A DNA stretch of 63,478 bases, the filler included, from Phoronis australis (taxonomy: Eukaryota > Animalia > Phoronida): assembly GCA_002633005.1 (NCBI GenBank). It is 4 parts of 4 records of this genome, joined end to end, with 100 filler letters (N's around TTAATTAATTAA, not from the genome) between each part and the next. Parts side by side here need not be neighbours in the genome. Positions count along the whole stretch, not along the records: positions 16,826 to 26,936 come from NMRA01001769.1; 3 more parts are not named here. The stretch is one strand, 5' to 3'. Position 1 is the stretch's first letter; each line of letters opens with the position of its first letter. Below, in pieces: positions 13,601 through 51,903 of the stretch. The notes beneath the pieces are model-generated. The model was not told where the DNA came from. It saw nothing but the letters and a program-made list of their open reading frames with translations, and ran no database searches. The position numbers were made by a program, and so were the translations under genes.

Positions 13601-15989
13601 TCATACCAGACCTGAGCTTCGTTGTAGAGCAATCAAGTAGCGATGTGGGACCTTCAACAGATTAATGTCCCCATGTTTCAGGCAGCGATACAGGACACTT
13701 GGACATTTATTTACGAAAAATAGAATGTACAAAAAACCCCAGAAGGTGCTAGAAAACATTACACTTGGGCACCCGTTGATGCTCCCACACTTAAGGAAGT
13801 GATATTGGCCCATTAGCTCATGGAATGCCACCATGCTGGAAATAAGACTTTTGTCCTCAGTCTATTTCCATTGAAACGTCCATAGTTCACTTGCAAAACC
13901 TAATAAATGTTGTGTCTTCAATCGACATGAAACAAGGGACCATTTTTAAAAATCCCCTCATTACGAGATTAAATCACTGATCAATGGCTGTACCTGTGAA
14001 GCAGAAAAACATGCGTGTTCGGTTAAGAACAGCTTTTGACACATTTGGAACTTTCACTCGAAGAGTTCTTGCTGAAACCAGAAATTCACAACATTAAATG
14101 CACATGAACCATGATGACAAGTTAAGAAAACAATTCAGCTATGAGTAGAGTCTTGTTTAACCTATTGACCTATCATGTCTCCCACCTGCACGTTGTAACC
14201 TAGACCTTGATATCATGCTGGTTCTTGACTGTACACTCAAAATGAAGAGTGCACCTCGAGTCATGTCAGCAAATGAAGTTATATACTAGTTGGCTATTTA
14301 ATAAATGTTTGACTGCTCTTCTGTTGAACACGTCATTTGGAAATGTGATAAATCGTAATACAAATTCACATCAGAATCTGAATGATTTGAAGTTTGTGGC
14401 AGTGAGCAACTTGTCTACGTTTAAAAGACATTATTACTGAGAGCACCGCCAGACATACCTATAGGACACTGAAGTGAGTTGTACAGTCCGTGCCCAAATT
14501 AATGAATGCTGGAGCTTTTCAAGTGAGGGCACTGTGAATTTAAAGAACTGATAAACATCACAGTTCCCTTAAGCCTTGCTGAAGAGGAGGAAGTTTGGAC
14601 TAGTGAGATAAGTGTCCAGCTTGGTTAAACTATTATTATAAAGCATAAAAATGGTTCCAAGTGATCAGAACAACGGTCCCATCTGAGCAGCATGTGTACG
14701 TCTGGTACAACTTGTAACAGACTGACCACAACTATAATAAGCTTAGGTATACCATGGTGTACAATGTAGACCGAGTACTCTAGCGTACAATGCGTTGTCT
14801 GCTCGTGAGAGGGCGGAGTTTGACCCCAAGACAACCTCTGTGATTCTACAAAAGGATGCTGTATACAGATGCACAGTGTTCCATTTGGCTGACTGATGAC
14901 GTCCATGTTGAAGGAAGAGTCTGTTAAAATGAATTGGAGAGGAGTGCTTGAGGATGACAGTAGCTACAGACAATTTCCGATGAATTTTCACTTTCACGCG
15001 TCGATCCAATGCAACCACTAAGAAATTAGGGTAGTAAGCCCGATTTCAGCCCAAGAACAGATTAATTTCAACTNTGCGCATGATTAACAGAAGGCTCAAA
15101 TTCAATGGAATATATCAATTTTTAAGCCAAAATTATGGAAATCTAGGCGCAGAAAAAATCTGCAATTTTTCAGGCACAAAAAGGGAATGAGTGGAAATTC
15201 CCTTTTTAAAATGGAAAGTGTTTATTATAAAGCATAAAAATGGTTCCAAGTGATCAGAACAACGGTCCCATCTGAGCAGCATGTGTACGTCTGGTACAAC
15301 TTGTAACAGACTGACCACAACTATAATAAGCTTAGGTATACCATGGTGTACAATGTAGACCGAGTACTCTAGCGTACAATGCGTTGTCTGCTCGTGAGAG
15401 GGCGGAGTTTGACCCCAAGACAACCTCTGTGATTCTACAAAAGGATGCTGTATACAGATGCACAGTGTTCCATTTGGCTGACTGATGACGTCCATGTTGA
15501 AGGAAGAGTCTGTTAAAATGAATTGGAGAGGAGTGCTTGAGGATGACAGTAGCTACAGACAATTTCCGATGAATTTTCACTTTCACGCGTCGATCCAATG
15601 CAACCACTAAGAAATTAGGGTAGTAAGCCCGATTTCAGCCCAAGAACAGATTAATTTCAACTAGATGGTTTAAAGCATTGAAGGAAAATCATACCCTGTT
15701 ACAAAAGTAGACCTAAAATTTAGATTAAAGTAAGTTAGAAACTCTAAAGATTGCTTAACGACACTGTACTTTGGTGTCCTTTGATGACTATCGGGGGAAA
15801 TACTGCCATGCTTGAACTGATCCCATATTGACATTACATACAAAATGAATCTTGAGAAAGCATATGTACCTGGAATACACTTCCACAGTCCCCCAGTCAG
15901 GTATGGTGAGCTTGTTTTCAAACTGGATCTCGGGATGTTGATCCCGGCTAGATTGAGCTCAAACTGAAATGCATGTTCAAAGTAAATAG
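1562..15989 (-). CDS. GSAP: Gamma-secretase-activating protein (GSAP/pigeon) orthologue, 5'-truncated by scaffold end; 18 coding exons
   Basis: Exons in transcript order: 15870-15989, 14753-14920 (duplicate copy 15342-15509), 13994-14071, 13263-13355, 12681-12901, 11941-12010, 10915-11012, 9746-9997, 8820-8935, 8424-8550, 7696-7791, 6725-6804, 4934-5028, 4524-4572, 3646-3716, 3071-3132, 2502-2721, 1562-1677 (TAG). All are GT-AG bounded with matching phases and no stops. Peptides QPNGTLCIC..YSVYIVHH, GDYLLAHLPGVFSHLLNV, ELSFPLPPGF..F..L..RCLP, LFLQYLDQGVLVL, IMRLP..CLEIWRHP and IDRDYLEKNAL match my recollection of human GSAP (TGSLCVC..YSVFYIHKG, DYYVAVYLPGHFFHLLNV, LFLPLPPGF, IDSGVLLL, IVRLP..LWDHP, VDAEFVEEAAL) in colinear order. 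Confidence 0.9.
2502..2721 (-). CDS. GSAP: GSAP exon (KDARRCLEIWRHP...FPPMAALLELLEAK)
   Basis: ccattttgcag acceptor, gtgaac donor; within ORF 2467..2727. Confidence 0.85.
3071..3132 (-). CDS. GSAP: GSAP exon (DLQTQENTEEIISQLIMRLPS)
   Basis: tgtctttcag acceptor, gtacgt donor, phase 1 to 0. Confidence 0.85.
3646..3716 (-). CDS. GSAP: GSAP exon (LFLQYLDQGVLVLNREIVEHVIE)
   Basis: caccatag acceptor, gtaaag donor, phase 2 to 1. Confidence 0.85.
4524..4572 (-). CDS. GSAP: GSAP exon (GFAQHFTKLAFRCLPY)
   Basis: aattacag acceptor, gttagt donor, phase 1 to 2. Confidence 0.85.
4934..5028 (-). CDS. GSAP: GSAP exon (SARGAQRDKDLFYMFETFWLAITELSFPLPP)
   Basis: ttttttctag acceptor, gtgaat donor, phase 2 to 1. 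Confidence 0.85.
5395..5961. mobile_element. PIF/Harbinger-type MITE in a GSAP intron
   Basis: About 40-bp imperfect terminal inverted repeats (GGGCTGGTCCAGCAAAATCTGTGTGGGAGGGGGGAAGGCA / TGCCTTCCCCCCTCCCCATACAGATTTTACTGGAACAGCCC), GGG...CCC ends, 3-bp TSD TGA on both sides. Confidence 0.75.
6725..6804 (-). CDS. GSAP: GSAP exon (MALSNQLCHLIWSVLGPSPEEYNCDN)
   Basis: ggtttcag acceptor, gtaagt donor, phase 0 to 2 fits both neighbours. Confidence 0.8.
7696..7791 (-). CDS. GSAP: GSAP exon (CQTKLKSHVLGNLRKDVPERIEGICTEYGECM)
   Basis: gtttccag acceptor, gtgagt donor, 96 nt, phase 0. Confidence 0.8.
7964..8296. mobile_element. Putative MITE in a GSAP intron
   Basis: Perfect 17-bp inverted repeat ATTCTCCAGTTTGGGAC (7964-7980) / GTCCCAAACTGGAGAAT (8280-8296). 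Confidence 0.45.
8424..8550 (-). CDS. GSAP: GSAP exon (QSPPSLPLPPSSALSRTDAILGAKPPFFSHIADYSLNRNYVM)
   Basis: ttccatccag acceptor, gtatgt donor, phase 2 to 0. Confidence 0.75.
8820..8935 (-). CDS. GSAP: GSAP exon (KIRKSPDQAYRLLQRPPQQKEKRGQSVLSNLTKLSRSK)
   Basis: Open frame, gtgggg donor in phase 2 fits the next exon; acceptor is GAG/AAG (NAGNAG) and less certain. Confidence 0.6.
9746..9997 (-). CDS. GSAP: GSAP exon (DARGSRLAVLGYSVFRGG...PRFDPAAVLKEIRSLEDNQWEVTSEKG)
   Basis: Within ORF 9605..10018; poly-T tract plus GAG acceptor; gtacgt donor, phase 0. Confidence 0.7.
10915..11012 (-). CDS. GSAP: GSAP exon (SSYSLARKRLDRRIAKLLPYTSSTGFSGHCER)
   Basis: cacttcag acceptor, gtaatt donor; matches the SSY...KLLP motif. 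Confidence 0.85.
11941..12010 (-). CDS. GSAP: GSAP exon (IVEAICNDPCSPENCPLLKEILL)
   Basis: aatctttcag acceptor, gtttgc donor, phase 0 to 1. Confidence 0.85.
12681..12901 (-). CDS. GSAP: GSAP exon (ENTFLFDSSPRYY...LLDLFMD...AVIHYATVYAKDLQFLKK)
   Basis: tttttgcag acceptor; within ORF 12663..12917; phase 1 to 0. Confidence 0.85.
13263..13355 (-). CDS. GSAP: GSAP exon (GDYLLAHLPGVFSHLLNVSIELEPCNHLIYQ)
   Basis: ttttcccag acceptor, gtgagt donor; strongest motif match to GSAP. Confidence 0.9.
13994..14071 (-). CDS. GSAP: GSAP exon (RTLRVKVPNVSKAVLNRTRMFFCFT)
   Basis: ggtttcag acceptor, gtacag donor, symmetric phase 1. Confidence 0.8.
14633..15662. repeat. About 440-bp direct duplication (14633-15073 / 15222-15662) separated by a single N; probable assembly overlap artefact
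   Basis: Copies appear identical, offset 589 bp; the first ends exactly at the n at 15074. Confidence 0.8.
14753..14920 (-). CDS. GSAP: GSAP exon (DSSFNMDVISQPNGTLCICIQHP...YSVYIVHH)
   Basis: cattttaacag acceptor, gtatac donor, 168 nt, symmetric phase 1; identical copy at 15342-15509. Confidence 0.85.
15870..15989 (-). CDS. GSAP: GSAP exon (IYFEHAFQFELNLAGINIPRSSLKTSSPYLTGGLWKCIP), most 5' exon visible
   Basis: gttttttcag acceptor, gtacat donor, phase 1 joins the next exon as CIP-DSSFNM. Confidence 0.75.
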
Positions 15990-19448: not shown

Positions 19449-19730
19449 CATGCACTCACCCAGCCTAAAAATGGGGGGGGCTCGAATTTTTGAGAATGTG
19501 GACGTCCCTTTTACTAAAACATACGGCCGGGTAGGCTACGTCACAGAGCAATGATCGAATTCTGCCGATTTGCCCGATTTTGGTAGTTCATTGCCTTTCT
19601 CAGTAGTGAACTCGTAGTCTTTTTCTGATTTTCGGACTTTTTGTTTCCTCTGAGGCGGACCTTTTTGCCCACTTCGCCAAATGGGAAGAGAGGCTCATGA
19701 TAACTGAAGCCCAGCTAGGGCTTACCGCCA
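19449..19730. mobile_element. MITE family with CATGCGCGCACCCAG-type ends (other copies 24717-24943 and 29874-30145)
   Basis: Shared CACCCAGCCTAAAA(T)ATGGGGG..CTCGAAT start and GGACCTTTTTGCC..TTCGCCAAAT internal block across three dispersed copies. Confidence 0.55.
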
Positions 19731-21582: not shown

Positions 21583-21960
21583 TTTTTAAGGCAGGCGATC
21601 AGGGCTGAGTTGCATAAAGCTTCAAAAGTTATCCACTGGATAAGTTTGATTGTTGAATGACGTCAGGTGCATTGTTCAACAATAATTACGTGACGCGTGA
21701 TAATGCGACGTCATTGTTGCTATACGGCGTATAACTTTTATGCAACTGGGTCCTGGTGTTTATCTTAGACTCTGCTTCAACTAAGGGCGTGTGTAAAAAA
21801 TTGTCGTCTCCCTGGAATCATTATTGAAGTTGTTTTAACACCAGCTCTGTACAGAGTTCGGGTGAAGAATACTGTCTCAGTTATTCACCATGATCGTATT
21901 AAACTGTGTAAAACTCGTCATGCTGACCTACATGTACTGCGTGGCTTCAGCGGATAGTGA
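21583..21960 (+). pseudogene. Gypsy integrase C-terminal (GPY/F-SH3-like) remnant
   Basis: GDLV-x-ILD, KL-S-S-P-W, LYRV and VIHHDRIKLC motifs; broken by a MITE (21603-21752), a short deletion after SPW and a frameshift at the TACATGTA at 21929. Confidence 0.75.
21603..21752. mobile_element. Short Harbinger-like MITE inserted in the integrase remnant
   Basis: Inverted ends GGCTGAGTTGCATAAAG / TTTTATGCAACTGGGTC, flanked by CAG/CTG; removing it restores GAT CTG GTG (D-L-V) in frame. Confidence 0.7.
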
Positions 21961-22145
21961 ACGTAGTTAACCAGATTCCTGACATTGATGATCAGTTGTA
22001 TTGTGTGTGTCGTCAGCCTGACCATGGTGGCCTCATGATCCAGTGTGACTCTTGTGATGATTGGTTTCATGGGGAATGTGTTAGTGTTACGGCTGATGAT
22101 GCACGCGATATGGATGATTATTGGTGTCCTCGGTGCAAGCCCTAA
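21957..22145 (+). CDS. PHD zinc finger (C4HC3), C-terminal end of the retrotransposon Pol
   Basis: LYCVCRQPDHGGLMIQCDSCDDWFHGECVSVTADDARDMDDYWCPRC: all eight Zn ligands intact; upstream frame reads PAWLQRIVNV back into the integrase remnant. Confidence 0.85.
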   Translation: MNVVNQIPDIDDQLYCVCRQPDHGGLMIQCDSCDDWFHGECVSVTADDARDMDDYWCPRCKP

Positions 22146-22439
22146 CTTTTCTTTTTGTTGCCGAAGTTGTGTTCTCTTGTACGGATGTCCGACTAAAAAC
22201 CAACCCGCGCCTTTGGCGGGTGACCTTCTCCGAGGGCTCCCATGACGTTCAAGAGACTTCTTCTGTGTCTAATAAGACACCTGCGTCTTCGGAGCATATG
22301 GATGTGAGTGATGCTTCTGGCACCCCTGCCGTGTCAGAGGATGTTAATCCATGTGATCATCCCAGTGATGTCTCATTAATATCACCTGCTCCAGTTCACA
22401 AAAAACCAATCAAGCCAGTTCCTTAAAAAGGGAACCTTG

Positions 22440-23864
22440 AACGAGGAAAGTTCGCTTGTCCCCTCTGTGGTTTAGTCGCCACGGGTAAAGTTTTACGGGA
22501 CAAATCACCTACCGTCAGTGTTCAATGTTGACTCCGTTCAGCGCTCTTCATCCTCCACTCTTCAGTGTGCACGGTTTCAGGCACTGAAGTCACTTTTCAT
22601 GCAAATTGAGGGAAGGTAACTTCAGCTTTATGAAGATCTTCTAGACTTTGCAGGCCTGCCAATGAGAAGCATGCTCCACGTTCCTCCTGTAACCATTGAA
22701 GACGAACTTCAAGTAATGATCTCCTGTAAAGTTCTGGGGTGGCCTACGCCTTCAGGCCCTTTAGTTCTCTGTGGGAGGTTGATCAACCTGGGTCTCTGCA
22801 TGCACTGGTTTGTAGTGTTGCAGTTGATGGCGAGAGTCCCCGAGCCGAATCGCTCTGTGTGGGCATTGTCTTTTGTCGATGGACCATGTGACATTCCAAC
22901 TGCACCTATGCCATCCAGCTTTCAGAGGCTTGTAGTTCCGTCAACATCGTCGGAACCTCTCCAGTTGGTACCTTCTCAACCAGTGTCATCGTCAGCATCT
23001 TCAACCTCCACCTTGGAAGGGGGAGGCGCCTCGCATTTTCATATGGATCGTCTAATATCAGCTTATCGTTCAAAGGTAACGTCTGCGGAAGTCGTCTGCT
23101 GTCCGTTGCCGATCTTCTAGCAACCAAGCTCCACAGTCAAGCTGTTGGGCGGTGTTCTTGTATTTTGTGACCCAACGGAGTACTCCCGTCATCCACACAA
23201 GGAGTACCTAAAAGCTCTTCGCCGGGGATTCAAAGCAGTCATTGGTGTGCATCCGAAACAGGAATCCAACTTTTCGGGTAATGTTAGGATTACCTTGTTC
23301 CGTCTCTTGCGGGAATCTGAAGTTGCCGGTCTGGGAGAGATCGGGTTTGAACAAGCCTTGGGAAAGGAAAAGCATCAGCGCCGGTTTGTGGAAGGCCTGA
23401 TTTCGGAGTTCGCCAGCCTTGGACGCCATAAGAGTGTTCGCGACAAGGTGGTGGTTCTTCACATCATGGCAGCATCACCAGGCTCAAATTATGAGTGGGG
23501 TTTCCACACTGCTTTCGACATTCTTAGAGAGCAGCTATCTAGATTCCAAAGGATCCATCTTCACACCTTCACTGGTGATTCCGTGGCAGTGATTAAGTTC
23601 CACCGTGAGTTCCCGAGCTGCTACTTCGTGTTCTCTGGTAGTTGTATCACATTTACTCGCTGGCAAGTCCAAGCGTTACGGGAGGTGCCCGAAGACCGTC
23701 TTCTGTTGGAGACTGATTCGCCTCACCTGTCCTTGCGCGAGCGACCTTACTATCCACAGTTCATTGGAGTAGTTGCTGAAGTAGTCGCCAAATATCGTGA
23801 CGTTCCGGTGGCTAGGATCCTCCAGTAGACCACTCGGAACGCTCAGCGTCACTACAGACTTTAG
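22440..23864 (+). pseudogene. Retrotransposon ORF2: CxxC plus uncharacterised domain plus TatD-family metal-dependent nuclease (disabled)
   Basis: TatD motifs SHFHMD (about 23030), GVHP, GLGEIG, VVLH, IHLHTF, LLLETDSP and C-terminal TTRNA. ORFs 22662..23120 and 23145..23828 share one frame, interrupted by TAG at 23118-20 and 23826-28; natural stop at 23862-64. Confidence 0.8.
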
Positions 23865-24447
23865 ATCTGGGATTAGTAGCATACACTGTAGTAGTGTATT
23901 TACATTAAATTTATATTTCGTTTCAGTGAAAATTAGAAGACTGTTTCAGGGATGCTCGTTCGCGGGTAGGTCTGATCAGCTTCTGCAATATGATCATTAA
24001 AAAAAAGAAATTTTGAGGCTCCTACTATGCTACCTTGTTGTTTATTGTTGTTCGTTATTACATGTATATGTTTTGTGTTTGTTACTTTTTTCATATGGTA
24101 GTTTATTTTTCTAAATAGTATATTTTTCTAGCAAACTTTATAACAACTTTTTCTAGTCAACAGAGATATTTCATTTTTTTGTATCTTGTACCATATGTAA
24201 ATTGTGACCACTATTTTTCAAACAGCCCCAGTCACGTATTTCTGTGAAGAATTTAGTTTTTTATTGTTAATCCGGCCACTTGAAATTTAGTTCATAGTAT
24301 TTTTCTAGGGTAATTCATTATCTGTTATTTCTTGTATGTTAGACGTTGTTCAATACTTCTTGTGTTTCTTCATTTAAGGGAGTGGGGGGTAAAGGTTGAG
24401 TAGTATGATTTTTTTTCAGTAAGGTTTTTGTTATTATTTCTCTATTT

Positions 24448-24461
24448 AGGGAGGGGAGGAA
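24448..24461 (+). other. Polypurine tract
   Basis: AGGGAGGGGAGGAA immediately before the TG start of the LTR. Confidence 0.8.
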
Positions 24462-24716
24462 TGTTGTGAATGTTGGTTTGTATGGTCTCGTCTTTTGTGT
24501 TGTCTCGTGTGTTCGTGTTTGTTCGGGGATTTCCGTGAGTGGCCTGATGTAGGGAGATCTAGAATTAGCACGTGACTGGGGAATGATTGGAGCTCTGTCT
24601 TCGTCTGGTCCTGCGACATGCAGGACATCTGCGTTTGACTCGCAAGATAAAGTGTGTGTTCAAGCTTCCATATGAGCAAAGGTAAGCTGCACGCGAACCT
24701 GTATTGAATTACAACA
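24462..24716 (+). repeat. 3' LTR (255 bp) of the PHD/TatD Gypsy element
   Basis: TGTTGTGAAT...AATTACAACA inverted termini, preceded by PPT; abuts a MITE whose left end is cut. Confidence 0.75.
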
Positions 24717-24943
24717 CACCCATCCTAAAATATGGGGGTGCTAAAATTTTTGGGCATGTTGACCTTTTACTACAAAAACGGGGTATGTTCAGAGCTGTGC
24801 ACAGTGCATTCCTGAATTACAGCTTTTTAGTGAACTCCTGTCTCGTTTTCTCAATTTTTTGTTTCTATGAGGCTGACCTTTTAATGCCCACTTCGGCAAG
24901 TGGGTGGGGGTGCTCGTTCGAGCCTCCACTGGGTGCGCGCATG
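24717..24943. mobile_element. MITE copy lacking the first ~8 nt of its left TIR
   Basis: Starts CACCCATCCTAAAATATGGGGG, ends CTGGGTGCGCGCATG; homologous to the copies at 19449 and 29874. Confidence 0.6.
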
Positions 24944-26001
24944 TGCCTGGTTCTCAAAATTAAGAATCATCAATGTAACTAATGTATTGCCTATTTTGAC
25001 TGATTTGCTCAGGTTTGTCGGAGGATCTAGGTTATTGAATGCGAAAGGACATTCCGATCCCACTACTATTTCTCTATCTGGAATACCCCCCGGCATAGNC
25101 CGGCATAGGTCACAATGTACCCCCCGGCATAGGTCACAATGTACCAAATATTTCAATGCAAATAAGGAAAATCTGTGTGATTTGACTTTGGGATTGAGTT
25201 TGACATTGTGCTTTCGAATTTTTACCGGGTTGTGGAATACTAGAATGTCGCAAAAGTTTGCATATTCAGACTTAAAATTTTCACATTCAATGCGAGTTTA
25301 CTGGTTTTATTGAAATCAAATATTTCAGTGTCATGGTGAAAGTGTTAGTTAGATTGGGTACAACTTTACCTAGGAGTTGAGTTGAGTTGAATATGGACTG
25401 ACTAGAATGATCTCCCGATGTCTGTAGGGGCATATTTGATTGGTAGAGTACAGGATATAGTATTTTTATGTTTAGTGTTGTATATGAGATAATTTTATTT
25501 TTACTGTAAACTATTACGGTTACGTAAGACCTCTTGTGCAGACCATGCCAGTATCTTTAATGGTGGATTCAGAGGACAGCTAAGGGGCCATGGCCCCGGC
25601 CCCCTTAAACGTTACAAGACCAATTGGCAGTTGGGGGGCAGGGGGTGAATGTCTCAAAACCCTACTCTGCCCTAACCCCCAAAACTCAAAATCTTGGATC
25701 CGTTCGACCGCCCCTGATCTTTACATGGATAACATTCCCTGTAAATGGGTTTATCACATACTGTTATGTTTGCTAATATCTCATTGTTTTCAGGTCTCTA
25801 TTAATTTGGCGGAGTACTTGGAAGAACTAGATATCCAAACATATGCATCGAAACAATCACCCAGCGGTGGTATTGAGCTGTTTACATCATAATGGCAGGT
25901 AGAGCTTCATATGTTTCATTGTTGAGTTAAAAATAGTGCTGCTATCAGGGTTTGAATTTGAAACAATATGAAATATGTCCTTAGTTTAGCCAATGGGCTT
26001 A

Positions 26002-42617: not shown

Positions 42618-44069
42618 GTTTTTACACAACACTAAACAGTAGTGGCTAACAAGAGGTTCCACACCCTGGCCCTGGCGCGTGACTGATGACCGTGACGTTC
42701 CACTCCGGGTATTCTATTTGCCGTGCATGTAGGTCAGCCAGTGAGTGTGTTTTGCATTCTTGGACCAACGTGCGAGTCTGTTTGGACCAAGAGTCATCGA
42801 CGGAGACACGTACGAATTGACCTTGCACGAGGGTTAGATAAGTGCTTTGTCTGTGGCTTGCAGGTTTTCATCCCCACTCTCTTGTTACGGTCCAAGTCAA
42901 TGTCAGTTGTAGGCCTAAATCCAGAAAATTTTGAGGAAGATCTGACAAAAGAATAGCTGCCAACATTCGAAAAGGAATTGAAAAAGTGCAGTCGGACACC
43001 ACGATCTAGACCATATCGCAAGGGGAAATGTCCGCTGCAACCGACATCCCAATAACACCCCGACGGCGCACACTTAGTGTTTTTGCAGTGCCCGCGAAAT
43101 GAAACTCGGAGATAGGGGTATATCGCGTGGAAAAATACGAAAGTATTCGGAAACAGGTATATTCCTTCACGTGTGCCACAACACGGGAAATTCGAATGCT
43201 GTGGCGTGATGCGCGACAGCGTTTCAAAAAGGAGACGGTCGGACCTCCATGAAAAGCGNTGTTCAGTCCCCGGCGGTCCTGTTTTCTGGTGGAGCGGTCA
43301 TGTTTTTAGGTGCGTCAGTCCCATTTTCTGGTGCGACGGTCCCATTTGATCCCCGGAGGTCCTGTTTTGGGGGAGGCGGTCCGATTTAAGAGGACCGGCG
43401 GTCATGTTGTTTCTCACCCGTGGTTTTTACACAACACTAAACAGTAGTGGCTAACAAGAGGTTCCACACCCTGGCCCTGGCGCGTGACTGGTGACCGTGA
43501 CGTTCCACTCCGGGTATTCTATTTGCCGTGCATGTAGGTCAGCCAGTGAGTGTGTTTTGCATTCTTGGACCAACGTGCGAGTCTGTTTGGACCAAGAGTC
43601 ATCGACGGAGACACGTACGAATTGACCTTGCACGAGGGTTAGATAAGTGCTTTGTCTGTGGCTTGCAGGTTTTCATCCCCACTCTCTTGTTACGGTCCAA
43701 GTCAATGTCAGTTGCAGGCCTAAATCCAGAAAATTTTGAGGAAGATCTGACAAAAGAATAGCTGCCAACATTCGAAAAGGAATTGAAAAAGTGCAGTCGG
43801 ACACCACGATCTAGACCATATCGCAAGGGGAAATGTCCGCTGCAACCGACATCCCAAATAACACCCCGACGGCGCACACTTAGTGTTTTTGCAGTGCCCG
43901 TGAAATGAAACTCGGAGATAGGGGTATATCGCGTGGAAAAATACGAAAGTATTCGGAAACAGGTATATTCCTTTACGTGTGCCACAACTCGGGAAATTCG
44001 AAATCAATGCTGTGGTGTGATGCGCGACAACGTTTCAAAAAGGAGACGGTCGGACCTCCATGAAAAGCG
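42618..44069. repeat. About 640-bp direct duplication (42618-43258 / 43423-44069) split by a single N; likely two haplotypes
   Basis: Near-identical copies with a few SNPs/indels; the first ends at the n at 43259. Confidence 0.75.
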
Positions 44070-46630: not shown

Positions 46631-49174
46631 TCATGGGTCATCGTACCCCTTTACATCACACATTATTGCCTGTACAAGCTTGCCCCAGAATGCCGTCTGT
46701 AGAATAACATCGCTCCCGTTCCATAGGATATAAGTTTGGTTGCGAACTAAATGGCGAAGTATCGGCGTCATAAGTTTCACGGACACTTTTTCCTTCATTA
46801 TAATGATCAGCGCTTGCCGAGAGAGGCGCTCGTCGAGAAGTTTGGCGTGCGCCATATTCAACTCCAACTTGCACCATTCACTCTTGACGTAATTCTCCGT
46901 CAATACAACTACAATCTTCCTACTCGTTTCTATGCTCTGTACAATGTTGTCTGTGATGTCCCCGCCCACCTGAAAGTTTCGCTCGTGGATACAAACTCTA
47001 AGGTCATTCTCTCCTTCCAGGTGGGATAGCATTTCTTGCACAACGAAGTCCGTGTCAAGGGAGCTGTAGGTGACGAAACAGTCATATTCAAAGTCTTCCC
47101 GACGACGCAGCGAAATTTCTTTTTTTCTCCGCGACCTTGCAAGAAACATCCAGTATCGTATAGACCATCTGTGATAATACGCAATGCCTGATATCGCTGC
47201 AGTAACAAACACCACAGTTCCGCTAGCTGTGGCAGTTATTAACAGCCAATTTAAATCACTGCAATCGTCGTCTGTAGTGTTTCGGCCATACTCGAAGATA
47301 GAATGTCCATGCCATTTCTTCGGTGTCAGACATTTGTAAGGCTTCCTTAAGACATGCGTGGATGCATTTGAAGAGGAATTCATCATCTCTAACCACGAGA
47401 TGAACCAGCGCAGCTTGCATTCGCACGCAAAAGGGTTACCATAACCTTCGAATCGTGTCAAGGTCGCCCTTACAGGCTGCAACATCGAGCTATTAATAGT
47501 AAATACCTGGCAGTTAATGATACTTAGGTGTTGAAGACTCACAAGGTATTGGAATGCTCGAGGGCTCCAACCGCTGAAACCGTTTCCGTCAAGAATTAGT
47601 TTTGTCAAATTCTTCAAGGCTGCAAAGAAGCCATCATGAAGATATTTCAGATTGACATAATTTAAATTGAGTTTGCGCAGACTTCGGAGGTCAGAAAAGA
47701 TTTCAATCGGCGAAGGAGCTTTGCGACTTGGCCAGTAGTCGAATTCTGAGAAATCGTTTCGTCCTAATAGGATTTCATCTAGTTTCTTTAGACCTTTGAA
47801 ATATCCGTCATTTTGAAGTAGAAACTTGTTGTTGGTCAGATCAATCCTGACAAGTTGGGACATGTTCCAAAATGTCGTTCTTGAGATAGACGTCATGAGA
47901 TTTCCGCCTGCTTCCAGGGCAGTGAGTTTTCTAAGAGGTGTCAACGACATCTCATCAAGATAGTGCAAATGATTGTAACCAATTTGCAGGACCTGGAGAT
48001 TCTCTAGTCCAATGAACGCGCTAATAATGGGTTTCACCTTCTTTACGTCAGCTATCACGTTTCTAACCAAACTTAGTTGCCGAACCATAGGTACGTACGA
48101 CATGCCGTGCGCATCGGAAAAACAGGGAATTTGAGACATTCTGTTGTTCTCGAAACTGATATTTCGCAAACTTCTCAAACCTTCCAGTGCACCGTCATCA
48201 ACATTTAGTATCTTGTTATAGGCCAAGCTTAACGTTTCCAGGCGGTTATTGGAAACGAAGGTGCCGTTTTCAATCCGTTGAATTGTGTTCGATGTTAAGT
48301 CTAAAGATACTAGGTCATCAAAACAGGAAAACGAACCTGCAATACTCGATACCGATGAATTCTGCAAGTCCAAATTTCGTAATGGAGCACCGCATAACGA
48401 CTCCATGACGGCGTCAAAGTCTGCTTTCCTCCATGTAATCGGATTGTTAGCCAAGCATAACGTTCTCAAATGTTTAAGTGGCTTGAATGCACTATGTGGG
48501 ATTGCTACTAAATTGCAGCTATCTAGTCGAAGTTCTTTCAAAGGACTATTTTGTAAATTCTCAAAGGCAGTTGCGTTAAAAGATGTGACTGGATTACCAG
48601 AAAAGCTAATATAGCTTAAGGCGGACTGCGTCTGAAAACAATCACCAAAAAATAGATCGGTTATTCTGTTGCGAGAAAGGTCTAACGTCTGCAAACTCTT
48701 CGACTTGATAGAGTTGAGTATCGTTGGCGTGAGGTGACTTCCACTCAAATTTAAAGTTTGAAGCCAGTGCAACGACTCCAAGGAACTCAGTTTAACATAT
48801 GTGTAGTCCCGAAGTTTATTTCCTGACAAATCGAGAAATGTGAGGCGTGACATGTTCATGAATACACCCGAATCTATCCTTTTCACCTTGCATTTAAACA
48901 TGTATAACTTTTGCAATTCTGGCAAAAATGGAAACGATGTGTTTCGTAGCCATCCAAATCTGTTGTTGGAGAGATTCAAGCTCAGAGTATCACGTGGAAT
49001 ATCTTTCGGTATTTCTCGCATTCTAATTGCGTAAGTGGAAGTCGGAGAGCAGTCGACGGTTCTGTATTCCGCGTTGCATCTACATTTTACTGGACAAGTT
49101 TGTGCGTACCTTGAGCTTCGAATGCAGGCTAGCGTCCAAATTAGTATGGAGACACGATGAAAGTTTGCATACAT
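46631..49174 (-). CDS. TLR: Toll-like receptor, single-cysteine-cluster type (signal peptide, LRRNT, ~20 LRRs, LRRCT, TM, TIR), 847 aa, intronless CDS
   Basis: CPVKCRC..TVDCS cap, LxxLxLxxN repeats, NPFACECKLRWF LRRCT, hydrophobic TM ending YYHRW, TIR boxes YDCFVTYS, CIHERNFQVG, SEWCKLEL, FW. True ATG at 49174; ttttgcag acceptor at 49187 implies a 5' UTR intron, so the track's TTG start at 49210 is probably intronic. Confidence 0.95.
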   Translation of the reverse strand: MYANFHRVSILIWTLACIRSSRYAQTCPVKCRCNAEYRTVDCSPTSTYAIRMREIPKDIPRDTLSLNLSNNRFGWLRNTSFPFLPELQKLYMFKCKVKRIDSGVFMNMSRLTFLDLSGNKLRDYTYVKLSSLESLHWLQTLNLSGSHLTPTILNSIKSKSLQTLDLSRNRITDLFFGDCFQTQSALSYISFSGNPVTSFNATAFENLQNSPLKELRLDSCNLVAIPHSAFKPLKHLRTLCLANNPITWRKADFDAVMESLCGAPLRNLDLQNSSVSSIAGSFSCFDDLVSLDLTSNTIQRIENGTFVSNNRLETLSLAYNKILNVDDGALEGLRSLRNISFENNRMSQIPCFSDAHGMSYVPMVRQLSLVRNVIADVKKVKPIISAFIGLENLQVLQIGYNHLHYLDEMSLTPLRKLTALEAGGNLMTSISRTTFWNMSQLVRIDLTNNKFLLQNDGYFKGLKKLDEILLGRNDFSEFDYWPSRKAPSPIEIFSDLRSLRKLNLNYVNLKYLHDGFFAALKNLTKLILDGNGFSGWSPRAFQYLVSLQHLSIINCQVFTINSSMLQPVRATLTRFEGYGNPFACECKLRWFISWLEMMNSSSNASTHVLRKPYKCLTPKKWHGHSIFEYGRNTTDDDCSDLNWLLITATASGTVVFVTAAISGIAYYHRWSIRYWMFLARSRRKKEISLRRREDFEYDCFVTYSSLDTDFVVQEMLSHLEGENDLRVCIHERNFQVGGDITDNIVQSIETSRKIVVVLTENYVKSEWCKLELNMAHAKLLDERLSRQALIIIMKEKVSVKLMTPILRHLVRNQTYILWNGSDVILQTAFWGKLVQAIMCDVKGYDDP

Positions 49175-51903
49175 TTCGTTAAGGTCCTGCAAAAATAAAA
49201 TTCCAAACAATTACACAGCGCAGGTCTTTTGAAAGGAAGAGCAATGAATACATTGGAAATATACGCAGCCAGAGTTTCCCAAACCTAGATACGCAGACAA
49301 CATCTAAGGAGACTCTGGCGGCAGTTATGAGTTCGTGCATCTGGTGAAGAGTGCAGATATATCACCAGCTTCAGATGCAAACTCGCTTAATTAGCTGCTC
49401 ATTTATAAACATTGCCAAAACGCAAGTTTCCTAAGAGTCAATTACTCTTTTCCCGATGAGCTGAGCTTTCACACCGACAAGTTTGTCCCCAGTGTATAAT
49501 GCGAAAATGACAAGAAAAATGTCACTTTGCCAATGTATCATAAGAGCAAAATAGGCTAAAATGTACGCTAAACTGCGCAAGCGCATAGCCGGTAATTACT
49601 TCCAACTCAACAACACTCACTGTTCCAAACTGCACTTGCGCTTAGGCAACTAGACCATTAATTTCACACTTTCAAACCATTTGGAATTTCTAACCAGTCG
49701 CCCGCTCATGTGCCTGGCCAGTTTAGATTGCAATTTTGTAGGCTAAAAGCAGCAACACGTCAAAGACGCGAAACCTTTCTTTTAGTTTCACATACCAAAG
49801 AAACTCATCAGTGAATTAAGAAAATGAAGAAAGTACACAAATTCATACTAACGCATGGAAAATTGAACGCTTGCAGAATAAGTAACTAGATTTTGGGACG
49901 TTAACTGGGTCACGTGACCCCGTTTTTAATAAATTTAGTAAAAAAGAAAGATATACTGATAACAAAACAATGGTATCAATTACATGACCAAATTTCATTT
50001 GCCATAAATTTTTAGCAGATACCTTAAAAACTTTTTTTTTTCTAAAATTACCCGTTTGTTTTCGTTTTATCCAACCGAAGCTTAACTTTTTAAGAAAATC
50101 ATTCAAGTCCTAGTTTTAATGGACCCTCATGCAAAAGCTGAACGTTTTAAAATAGTTCTTAAGAGCTCTGTCGGGAACACTGTTAAAACATAGAATCTGA
50201 AAGTAAATTGTCATATGAATCTTTTCAGCCATTTCTAAGATATGACGTGTCGAGATTAGCCAAATTTGGACATTTTCTAAGGTCCTACAATACCTTAAGT
50301 TATCCATTTTCTATGCGAGGATTTCCGAACACAGAGCCGCATGTTTCGACCATGGTGTTCCTTAATAGTCCATGTCACATTTTTCAACGGGAATGGGAGT
50401 GCTCAAGTTGTCACTGACATGTGCCAATAATTTTCGGTGTGATGATAGGCTGAAAAGTGTTTCGAATTAAACACTTTAGTAACGTCGACCGTATGTTCTC
50501 AAGTCTACCCAAACAAACCGTCCGACGTAATGACTATTCTGTGCTCCAGCCAGTACTGCGAAGCCTTGACGTGTAATGAGTGTAATGAATTCTGCAGTCA
50601 CGTCCAGTTACAAACGTCGGTTCAATAACCTGCTGTCTCTGTAGCCTGACCTCTTAGAAGCATCTCCTGGTAGGTTCTCTAGTATTCTATTGTAAACAAA
50701 TCTCATCATCACTAGCCTGATCCCAAGGGTCATGTCGATCAATTTATGTCTGCTAGTAAACAAATAGAACAGAAAAATAGGGCCTATACTACCAAAACAA
50801 GTGTCGGCCTACTCCTGACACTCTATTTTAAAGTGCTTAAAGGCGTATTTGCATGCTCTAACTATGCTTATGTACAGCAGGAATTAAACACGAGTCCCGA
50901 CATTTTAAACACGAACCGTGACCTTTAAAACACGAACCTCTGGGATCGAACCCGAAACTCGGGCACATTTTCGACTTTTTTGAGACGATTTCAGTAACCT
51001 TAAACTGAGCTAAAGCATGTTCAAGTACTTTCCAGTTGTTTTCTGCATTTCTTTGTTAAAAAATATAGTAATAAAACGTAACTTATATTATATTAATAAT
51101 TGAGATGCTGTAAAGTACCGGAAAAAGTCAAGGCCAGTGGCAGCTAGTATGAGCTCGTACTAGTCAGGATAGGTAAATTTGTGACTGAGCAGGACCCATC
51201 TTGGAGTCAAATCATTTGCGACGATCACCGAAGAGAATTTGGTCACGGTTTTCACCCAAGCAGAAAGTGTTTGTACCCTTCCAAAAGAAAATCTGAACGA
51301 GGTATTGACTTAACATTTCACCTTAGATATTGGCTCAGTTTCGACAGGCCGAAATGGTACCACCCAGCACCTTCGATTCAAGTGTCACAGTTGGAGTTAA
51401 ATGACTCAGCTTTGCTTTCCTAGTGCTCGCCAATATATGTATTATATATTTTATCGTACTTAATCGTAGTTTGTAGTTGAGGTGAAATGACAGTAGTTAA
51501 TCCAGTGGCGTAGCGAGCACCTCCTTGCCCCCGTCGACACCTCAATCACCCACCCCCGGTTAGTAGTATGTTAACCCCCAAGTAAACAGATGCCTGCTGC
51601 CCTCCGTGGACCCGGGACGACACCCGTTTAGCACCCCCCCCCCCCTTCGTCATCATTTCTTAAAATATTAGATTGTAATTGTCAAAAATCATCTATTAAC
51701 CTGTCGGTTGTCGTAGATTCACAAACATGTAAATCAGAAACCAAAGAATTTGTTTATCAAAACGGAATAAGCAATTTTCGCAGGCATGATTGCAGGTTTT
51801 AACGGGTAACCTGGGGAACATGGGAGATGGGGCATTCATACTAAGGTGTGCATGTATTTTTGCTCAATTCCGAGGTACCTATAACGGTTCACGAATTTAA
51901 CTT

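Follow-up and report, generated by a model that had tools for sequence, protein, structure and literature searches.

What does a gene for a TatD-type nuclease do between the end of a retrotransposon pol gene and a long terminal repeat (LTR)? The question is raised by positions 21583 to 24716 of a 63,478-nt stretch of the Phoronis australis genome (assembly GCA_002633005.1), hereafter the window, along the whole of which the coordinates of this copy are counted; the locus lies inside the part taken from record NMRA01001769.1 (16,826 to 26,936). It is the dead, 5′-truncated 3′ end of a Ty3/Gypsy LTR retrotransposon that belongs to a large family found in marine invertebrates. The element has the layout LTR, gag, pol (protease, reverse transcriptase [RT], RNase H, integrase, and a PHD finger), a third open reading frame (ORF3) bearing TatD, polypurine tract (PPT), and LTR. 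Taken jointly, this layout, its recurrence in 25 families, the common descent of TatD and pol, purifying selection, and the retention of metal ligands leave almost no room for doubt.

TatD is a resident gene of a Ty3/Gypsy family

We scanned 53 loci, 37 from metagenomes and 16 from genome bins, which form 39 families at 80% nucleotide identity. The linkage of TatD to pol could be tested in the 28 loci, representing 25 families, that have at least 1.5 kb of upstream sequence; in all 28, an integrase-PHD module lies directly ahead of ORF3 on the same strand, at 440 to 1781 nt. Pol was also visible in 5 of the 25 shorter loci and was on the opposite strand in none of the 53. Each of the six loci scanned for all three ORFs (L024, L031, L035, L043, L044, and L050) holds, by Pfam, gag, the complete protease-RT-RNase H-integrase-PHD series, and TatD, and the pol order from protease to integrase was seen in these six as well as in L033, L052, and L058. 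Since ORF3 and Pol are separate reading frames, a Pol-TatD fusion was rejected.

The ends of the element are those of an LTR retrotransposon. Locus L052 holds two LTR copies 11.4 kb apart that agree at 91 of 92 nt, the 3′ copy being cut by the contig end; the 5′ copy has a non-purine flank and a primer site, and the 3′ copy stands behind a PPT. A PPT, a TG start, and a TGG(C/T)G primer-binding site were found in 13 loci, and terminal overlaps in five contigs are as expected of assemblies collapsed through the LTR. Matches to PNMA, Retrotrans_gag, Ty3_capsid, and zf-CCHC identify a capsid and a zinc knuckle in gag, while the best PDB match of Pol is Ty3 Gag-Pol (E 1e-103), followed by caulimoviral (6e-43) and retroviral (3e-26 or weaker) proteins. 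Membership in Ty3/Gypsy therefore follows from the pol order, the Ty3-type RT and integrase, the gag with its zinc knuckle, and the paired LTRs, PPT, and primer site of the relatives.

Sixteen of these contigs (L043 to L058) sit in bins titled Sedimenticola or Ca. Thiodiazotropha, where the frames are annotated as "TatD family hydrolase" or transposase; all are Gypsy elements, several of them complete. Because a whole gag-pol is encoded, a bacterial origin was rejected despite the titles, and contamination of the reference bins with host DNA is the likely source.

Several loci show variations. Of the 14 gag-region ORFs scanned, 7 have a helix-hairpin-helix module (HHH_3) at the start of Gag (L009:5649-5800, L031, L035, L043, L044, L045, and L056). 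At L028:250-2828, a gag knuckle and protease stand directly before ORF3 without RT, RNase H, or integrase, and the TatD frame is open; this is possibly a non-autonomous derivative. An NXPE4-like, esterase-type ORF precedes integrase at L048:322-900, in a tandemly repeating unit of 7,761 nt, and one family Pol (P0366) is listed with a TPT1/KptA RNA 2′-phosphotransferase domain (PF01885).

TatD has descended with pol under purifying selection

Across the 13 loci in which both domains are intact, 9 of 10 splits are common to the integrase and TatD trees (2,000 shuffles: mean 0.33, maximum 3; Mantel r 0.77). RT and TatD trees share 5 of 6 splits across nine loci (shuffles: mean 0.45, maximum 5), and no conflict was found among well-supported splits between the TatD tree and either of the others. 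Among 31 TatD domains, the four unsaturated pairs gave dN/dS values of 0.12, 0.39, 0.13, and 0.21; in the next 18 pairs printed, pS was 0.74 to 0.93 versus a pN of 0.21 to 0.34. The HxH pair was part of the search motif; the remaining ligands, which lie outside it, were kept in 34, 34, 33, 31, and 32 of the 34 loci (of 53) whose frame is long enough. TatD evolves faster than integrase and RT, by a factor of about 2.2 to 3.4. The first-pass annotation of the P. australis copy had proposed a retrotransposon lineage with both a PHD-tipped integrase and its own TatD, and it had named congruence of RT and TatD trees and dN/dS across TatD copies as checks. The 28 of 28 linkage, the congruent trees, and purifying selection (dN/dS 0.12 to 0.39) bear that proposal out, as the existing entries do its prediction of misannotation: annotators list these ORFs as host or bacterial genes.

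In a quick tree, the element TatDs, including the P. australis copy, fall on one side of a branch that sets them apart from host TATDN2 (SH-aLRT 96). An animal TATDN2 profile outscores a bacterial profile for 43 of 50 element TatDs, and a motif picked by eye is shared by 42 of 45 element rows, 23 of 25 host rows, and 1 of 14 bacterial rows. Given this profile preference and a motif common to the host rows, the element TatD was likely captured from an animal TATDN2.

ORF3 encodes a three-domain protein ending in a group II TatD barrel

Homologue searches returned two groups, ordinary animal TATDN2-like proteins and proteins of 700 to 1,100 residues in which TatD is preceded by a C2H2-like finger and an HWR motif. 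The ORF3 family runs, in order, through a helical N-domain, a disordered linker, a zinc-finger/HWR domain, and TatD, and AlphaFold gives the same picture of three confident domains split by disorder. In a search with a family-specific profile, clusters at 50% identity numbered 828 at E up to 0.001 and 415 at 1e-10, and TatD was present in 28 of the 30 scanned from among the longest matches listed. ORF3 is multicopy, with three loci in Saccostrea cucullata, two in Lytechinus pictus, and up to 24 members in one assembly. Carriers named in protein records, and known from their proteins only, include oysters, mussels, a sea slug, sea urchins, and a hemichordate. Searches of viral contigs with the full TatD alignment returned only five ordinary TatD loci, and with the family-specific alignment none.

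The ORF3 model matches TatD structures (E 2.5e-14), and its best PDB sequence matches are TatD proteins of the YcfH type. The HxH pair and the E, H, H, and E-x-D ligands are arranged on a TIM barrel, as in group II TatD enzymes, and we predict with considerable confidence from these residues that ORF3 is a catalytically active nuclease. TatD_DNase is the sole Pfam domain in the ORF3s scanned, none of which holds a DEDDy exonuclease. An env-like role was rejected in view of the TatD enzyme fold and a hydropathy profile that, in 16 of 17 ORF3s, has no segment above 1.7 and thus does not resemble that of a membrane glycoprotein.

The domains ahead of TatD are less familiar. For the zinc-finger/HWR region, PDB yielded no sequence match at E up to 1, Foldseek none at E up to 0.001, and the Atlas none above 0.83. 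A wide structural search with the N-domain gave generic helical matches (best Z 7.9), none reliable, and barely covered the HWR domain. For the N-domain of L050 (9002-9310), 4 of 50 rows were RNA polymerase II CTD-interacting domains (Seb1, p15RS, Ctk3, and Nrd1; Z 5.9 to 6.7, below significance). Separately, a cluster from two Mytilus species (P0214) has the zinc-finger/HWR domain inside gene models of 2,000 to 2,600 residues that end in EF-hands, possibly through domestication or annotation fusion.

Pol ends in a PHD finger that probably reads H3K4me3

Pol homologues numbered 1,195 at E up to 1e-40, and the full PHD pattern was present in 105 of the best 120, nearly always at the C terminus. 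All nine long Pol ORFs that include integrase carry this finger in place of a chromodomain, which is absent. The nearest PDB matches are the PHD fingers of CXXC1, PHF2, DIDO, PHF8, and BPTF, which we take to be readers of H3K4me3. The aromatic cage is preserved across the 105 sequences, with Y or F before the first Cys in 102 and the M and W in all, the W being part of the PHD search expression. The element PHD probably binds H3K4me3, judging from these residues and relatives.

Predicted splice signals in the LTR and behind pol

A splice donor scoring at least 5 of 7 was found no more than 75 nt ahead of the primer site in 11 of 13 loci versus 1.6 expected. For 16 of 29 loci, an acceptor lies no more than 140 nt past the pol stop, versus 5.8 by shuffling and 104 of 499 control windows. 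Retroviral-type env is made from a spliced message, and these signals suggest that ORF3 likewise is fairly likely to be translated from a message spliced from the LTR donor to an acceptor just past the pol stop.

What ORF3 may do for the element

The explanation that we consider best overall, and moderately probable, is a three-gene Gypsy family in which the PHD steers integration and ORF3 supplies an active nuclease, made from a spliced message and derived from TATDN2, that clears R-loop-like RNA. The PHD would read H3K4me3 and steer integration to active chromatin; ORF3 would be made as a separate protein from a message in which the LTR donor is spliced to the acceptor that follows pol; its TatD would have been captured, probably once, from host TATDN2; and ORF3 would remove the RNA of R-loop-like structures during the life cycle of the element. 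Clearing R-loops at transcribed element copies or at promoters targeted by the integrase could spare the element stalled transcription, damage signaling, and silencing.

Human TATDN2 acts on R-loops by degrading their RNA, is minimally active on plain RNA:DNA duplexes, has little DNase activity and very weak apurinic/apyrimidinic (AP) activity, and depends on its disordered N terminus for binding (PMC10711561). Because of that specificity, we favor a nuclease acting on R-loops or structured RNA. The cDNA-clearing and other DNA-directed roles suggested in the first-pass annotation are weakened, since TATDN2 cuts R-loop RNA and the element TatD shares features of animal TATDN2. More tentatively, and by analogy, ORF3 may work as human TATDN2 does, in the nucleus, on R-loops at transcribed copies or integrase-targeted promoters. 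We can only speculate on the fullest version, an old and large animal Gypsy clade with a single TATDN2 capture, two added domains, and an env-like spliced R-loop RNase acting with an H3K4me3-reading integrase at active promoters, which is unlikely to hold in every part. In that version, the element could insert and be transcribed at such promoters while it removes the RNA-DNA structures that would otherwise provoke damage signaling or silencing, and, if true, ORF3 would be the first R-loop resolvase encoded by a retroelement.

Several observations weigh against these proposals. The 53 loci stem from about seven sources rather than 53 hosts, and near-identical contigs occur among those from metagenomes and bins; target-site duplications were not seen, as no locus spans both outer flanks. 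The TatD tree is a quick version, unrooted and without TATDN1 or TATDN3. The P. australis TatD scores higher on the bacterial profile (106.7 versus 97.8), and element TatD is about 29% identical to host TATDN2 and 26% to bacterial TatD, so its specificity may differ. Thresholds for splice sites and motifs, and the choice of 13 loci, were set after the sequences had been viewed, and no splice joint was found in raw RNA reads over the P. australis copy. Those reads fall mostly on a miniature inverted-repeat transposable element (MITE) inserted in it; depth over TatD reaches about 5 in X5 and about 2 in X6, with none in X7 or X8, and the TatD reads are mostly first-mate +, likely antisense if the library follows the usual strand convention. 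Enrichment of nuclear-signal motifs is slight (14 of 17 ORF3s versus 8.7 expected). Finally, the group II enzymes YcfH and TATDN3 act on DNA (PMC10085689).

This last point leads to a reading that we consider unlikely, if the most serious of the alternatives, in which, as the main idea of the first-pass annotation had it, ORF3 acts on DNA intermediates. It would be a 3′-5′ exonuclease or AP endonuclease serving to trim the ends of cDNA, to dispose of cDNA that is damaged or aborted, or to aid the repair of integration gaps. In the same source, YcfH and YjjV of group II, with TATDN3, are 3′ exonucleases and AP endonucleases, as are TATDN1 and the E. coli paralogues on DNA (PMC10085689); moreover, the closest PDB sequences are YcfH-type, and the helix-hairpin-helix start of Gag in 7 of 14 gag-region ORFs hints at extra DNA handling. 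However, the nearest host group is apparently TATDN2, with its poor activity on DNA and AP sites (PMC10711561), and ORF3 is fused to neither Gag nor Pol, so packaging into particles is not evident. Somewhat less probable again is a counter-defense in which ORF3 would blunt piRNA silencing or innate sensing by breaking down silencing RNAs, structured RNAs, or nucleic acids in the cytosol. The faster change of TatD would suit this, as genes in conflict often evolve in that way, and human TATDN2 does cut hairpin RNA (PMC10711561). Silencing roles have also been raised for the DEDDy ORF3s of rotifers (PMC5408684), and two conserved domains without a known family precede TatD. Yet dN/dS values below 0.4 give no indication of positive selection, faster change fits weaker constraint too, and no host partner was identified.

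Accessory non-enzymatic ORFs are reported for LTR elements, such as Cer1 CERV, and the TatD fold might by that precedent serve as a nucleic acid-binding scaffold for RNA export or packaging, with catalysis irrelevant. This is improbable in view of the metal ligands, which are kept in 31 to 34 of the 34 copies, drawn from families with saturated synonymous sites. The P. australis copy alone, which has a single LTR, lacks RT, and carries a decayed TatD, could be read as a host TATDN2 retrocopy and a piece of a PHD gene that happen to lie beside an unrelated LTR. For the family, such chance neighborhood is refuted by the linkage in 28 of 28 loci, intact whole elements, congruent trees, and the supported TatD branch (SH-aLRT 96), and we give it next to no weight. 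We retain a spliced, TATDN2-derived nuclease of R-loop-like RNA as the preferred explanation.

The decayed copy in Phoronis australis

All six parts that the first-pass annotation had placed here, namely integrase tail, PHD, TatD ORF, AT-rich untranslated region, PPT, and LTR, are present on the + strand in that order (Table 1). The PHD is intact as described, with an open reading frame and cage positions Y, M, and W. Two parts are more damaged than had been thought: the integrase GPY/F module is present but interrupted by frameshifts besides the MITE, and TatD has all its motifs, including 8 of 8 scored active-site positions, but its frame is not open. ORF3 stops at 22424, 22617, 23118, and 23826 and shifts frame somewhere around 22470 to 22500. 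TatD is moreover the end of a longer ORF3, not described in the first-pass annotation, that begins near 22184 and whose first part holds a disordered stretch, a Cys pair near 22457, and the zinc-finger/HWR helical domain at about 22500 to 22850; the first helical domain of the relatives is absent. By the scoring rule used, 22146 to 22183 contains no canonical splice acceptor. The Pfam match of the integrase tail is weak (Integrase_p58_C, PF22938; E 0.08).

Table 1. Features of the P. australis remnant, numbered along the window
Feature	Position	Strand	Basis
5′ edge of remnant, few integrase-tail codons ahead of MITE	21583..21599	+	Read from sequence; too short for tblastn; contigs join across MITE
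MITE inserted into integrase tail, very high copy	21600..21752	not assigned	Inverted ends, contig depth, MITE-skipping contigs
Integrase C-terminal segment, GPY/F-type, frameshifted	21753..21942	+	tblastn to relatives' Pol C termini, E down to 1e-23
PHD finger C4HC3, intact, closing Pol	22002..22145	+	Pfam E 1.5e-12 (22002-22136); stop 22143
Pyrimidine tract at relatives' splice-acceptor position	22146..22183	+	Sequence
ORF3 N-terminal part, broken	22184..23030	+	Family profile match 22500-23186, E 8e-16
TatD domain of ORF3, group II, HxH	23031..23864	+	Pfam E 1.8e-21 (23031-23861); natural end 23862
3′ untranslated region, AT-rich	23865..24447	+	GC 30%
PPT	24448..24461	+	Sequence; relatives have same G-rich tract ahead of TGT(A/G/T)G(T/G)
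3′ LTR, 255 bp, TGTTGT...ACAACA, TG...CA	24462..24716	+	Inverted ends, contig depth; one predicted splice donor, GT at 24682

Twelve purines followed by TG occur at four sites in the window, both strands counted, and only the site at 24448 has a 6-nt inverted end 150 to 600 nt onward. Contigs from four DNA runs, all of a single sample, have a summed depth of about 50 in the flank, 100 to 315 in the coding part, about 1,800 in the LTR, and about 80,000 in the MITE; this measure points to repetition only roughly and is not a copy number. The MITE has 3-nt CWG-type ends, presumably of the Harbinger type, and is real, as one contig in each of the four runs skips its 153 nt. No 5′ LTR, gag, or RT was found anywhere in the window, and tblastn with 37 element proteins gave no match upstream of 21753 or elsewhere in it.

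Around the remnant, another high-depth repeat begins at the 3′ end of the LTR (24717 to 25100), with look-alikes near 19640 and 30050. Near-identical tandem duplications at 14633 to 15521 and 42618 to 44069 (spacing 589 nt and about 805 nt) are possibly assembly artifacts, and an unbroken 859-codon Toll-like receptor frame with LRR and TIR lies at 46631 to 49210 on the − strand.

Relation to known systems

A nuclease ORF3 in LTR elements is of a known kind; what appears to be new here is the TatD fold in the env slot of Ty3/Gypsy. We found no description of a TatD-bearing Gypsy or LTR family in a literature search that left outside Repbase, Dfam, GyDB, most subscription journals, and supplements, where the family may be recorded, and PHD-directed literature did not describe the family either. 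Neither TatD nor PHD is mentioned in the accessible main text, supplements aside, of PMC13524379, PMC8220671, and PMC6238403 (a Gypsy clade list), TatD is not mentioned in that of PMC5408684, and the part of PMC6962438 available mentions host TATDN2 only. The database entries named "TatD hydrolase" from bivalves, sea urchins, and symbiont bins, which number in the hundreds, are explained as retrotransposon genes, and this matters for gene family counts and contamination checks.

The element resembles errantivirus and retroviral env arrangements in the placement of ORF3 behind pol and in a message predicted to be spliced from a donor close to the 5′ end; unlike env, ORF3 has an enzyme fold and no transmembrane or fusion features. 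Plant Tat/Ogre elements carry an additional RNase H, a captured host nuclease that acts on RNA paired with DNA. They are thus also LTR elements with a second captured host nuclease, but theirs is an RNase H inside pol, whereas TatD here is a separate ORF. With animal TATDN2, ORF3 shares a C-terminal group II HxH TatD behind a long, partly disordered N-terminal region and segments absent from bacterial rows; it differs in its low identity to TATDN2, in being a multicopy, uninterrupted ORF within a retroelement, in its extra helical and zinc-finger/HWR domains, and in its separate branch. Chromoviruses and CopiaMBD likewise carry a domain that reads chromatin, placed at the end of the integrase or within the polyprotein and thought to guide integration (PMC6673714), but the reader here is a PHD of the CXXC1/PHF2/DIDO/BPTF type rather than a chromodomain or MBD. 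The same source calls retrotransposon PHDs widespread, so that finding one in a retroelement is no novelty in itself; here, an enzyme is paired with a probable reader of active chromatin on the integrase.

The closest parallels are the rotifer LTR elements Juno and Vesta, whose ORF3 is a DEDDy 3′-5′ exonuclease; GDSL esterase ORF3s also occur in rotifer LTR elements (PMC5408684). The statement in the first-pass annotation that the slot between pol and the LTR holds env or nothing is therefore not right. Both systems are Gypsy-like elements with a host-type nuclease, catalytically intact in appearance, in the env slot, without a transmembrane segment and with function unproven (PMC5408684). Ours differs in its TatD TIM barrel, its two extra conserved domains and its integrase PHD, and, by protein names, in its occurrence in molluscs, echinoderms, and a hemichordate, and in that selection on it is shown to be purifying and its descent to be shared with pol. 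The short list of env-slot enzymes in LTR retrotransposons gains another nuclease fold, not related to the first, with stronger evidence of selection than in the rotifer case, and what such nucleases do for the element becomes a testable question.

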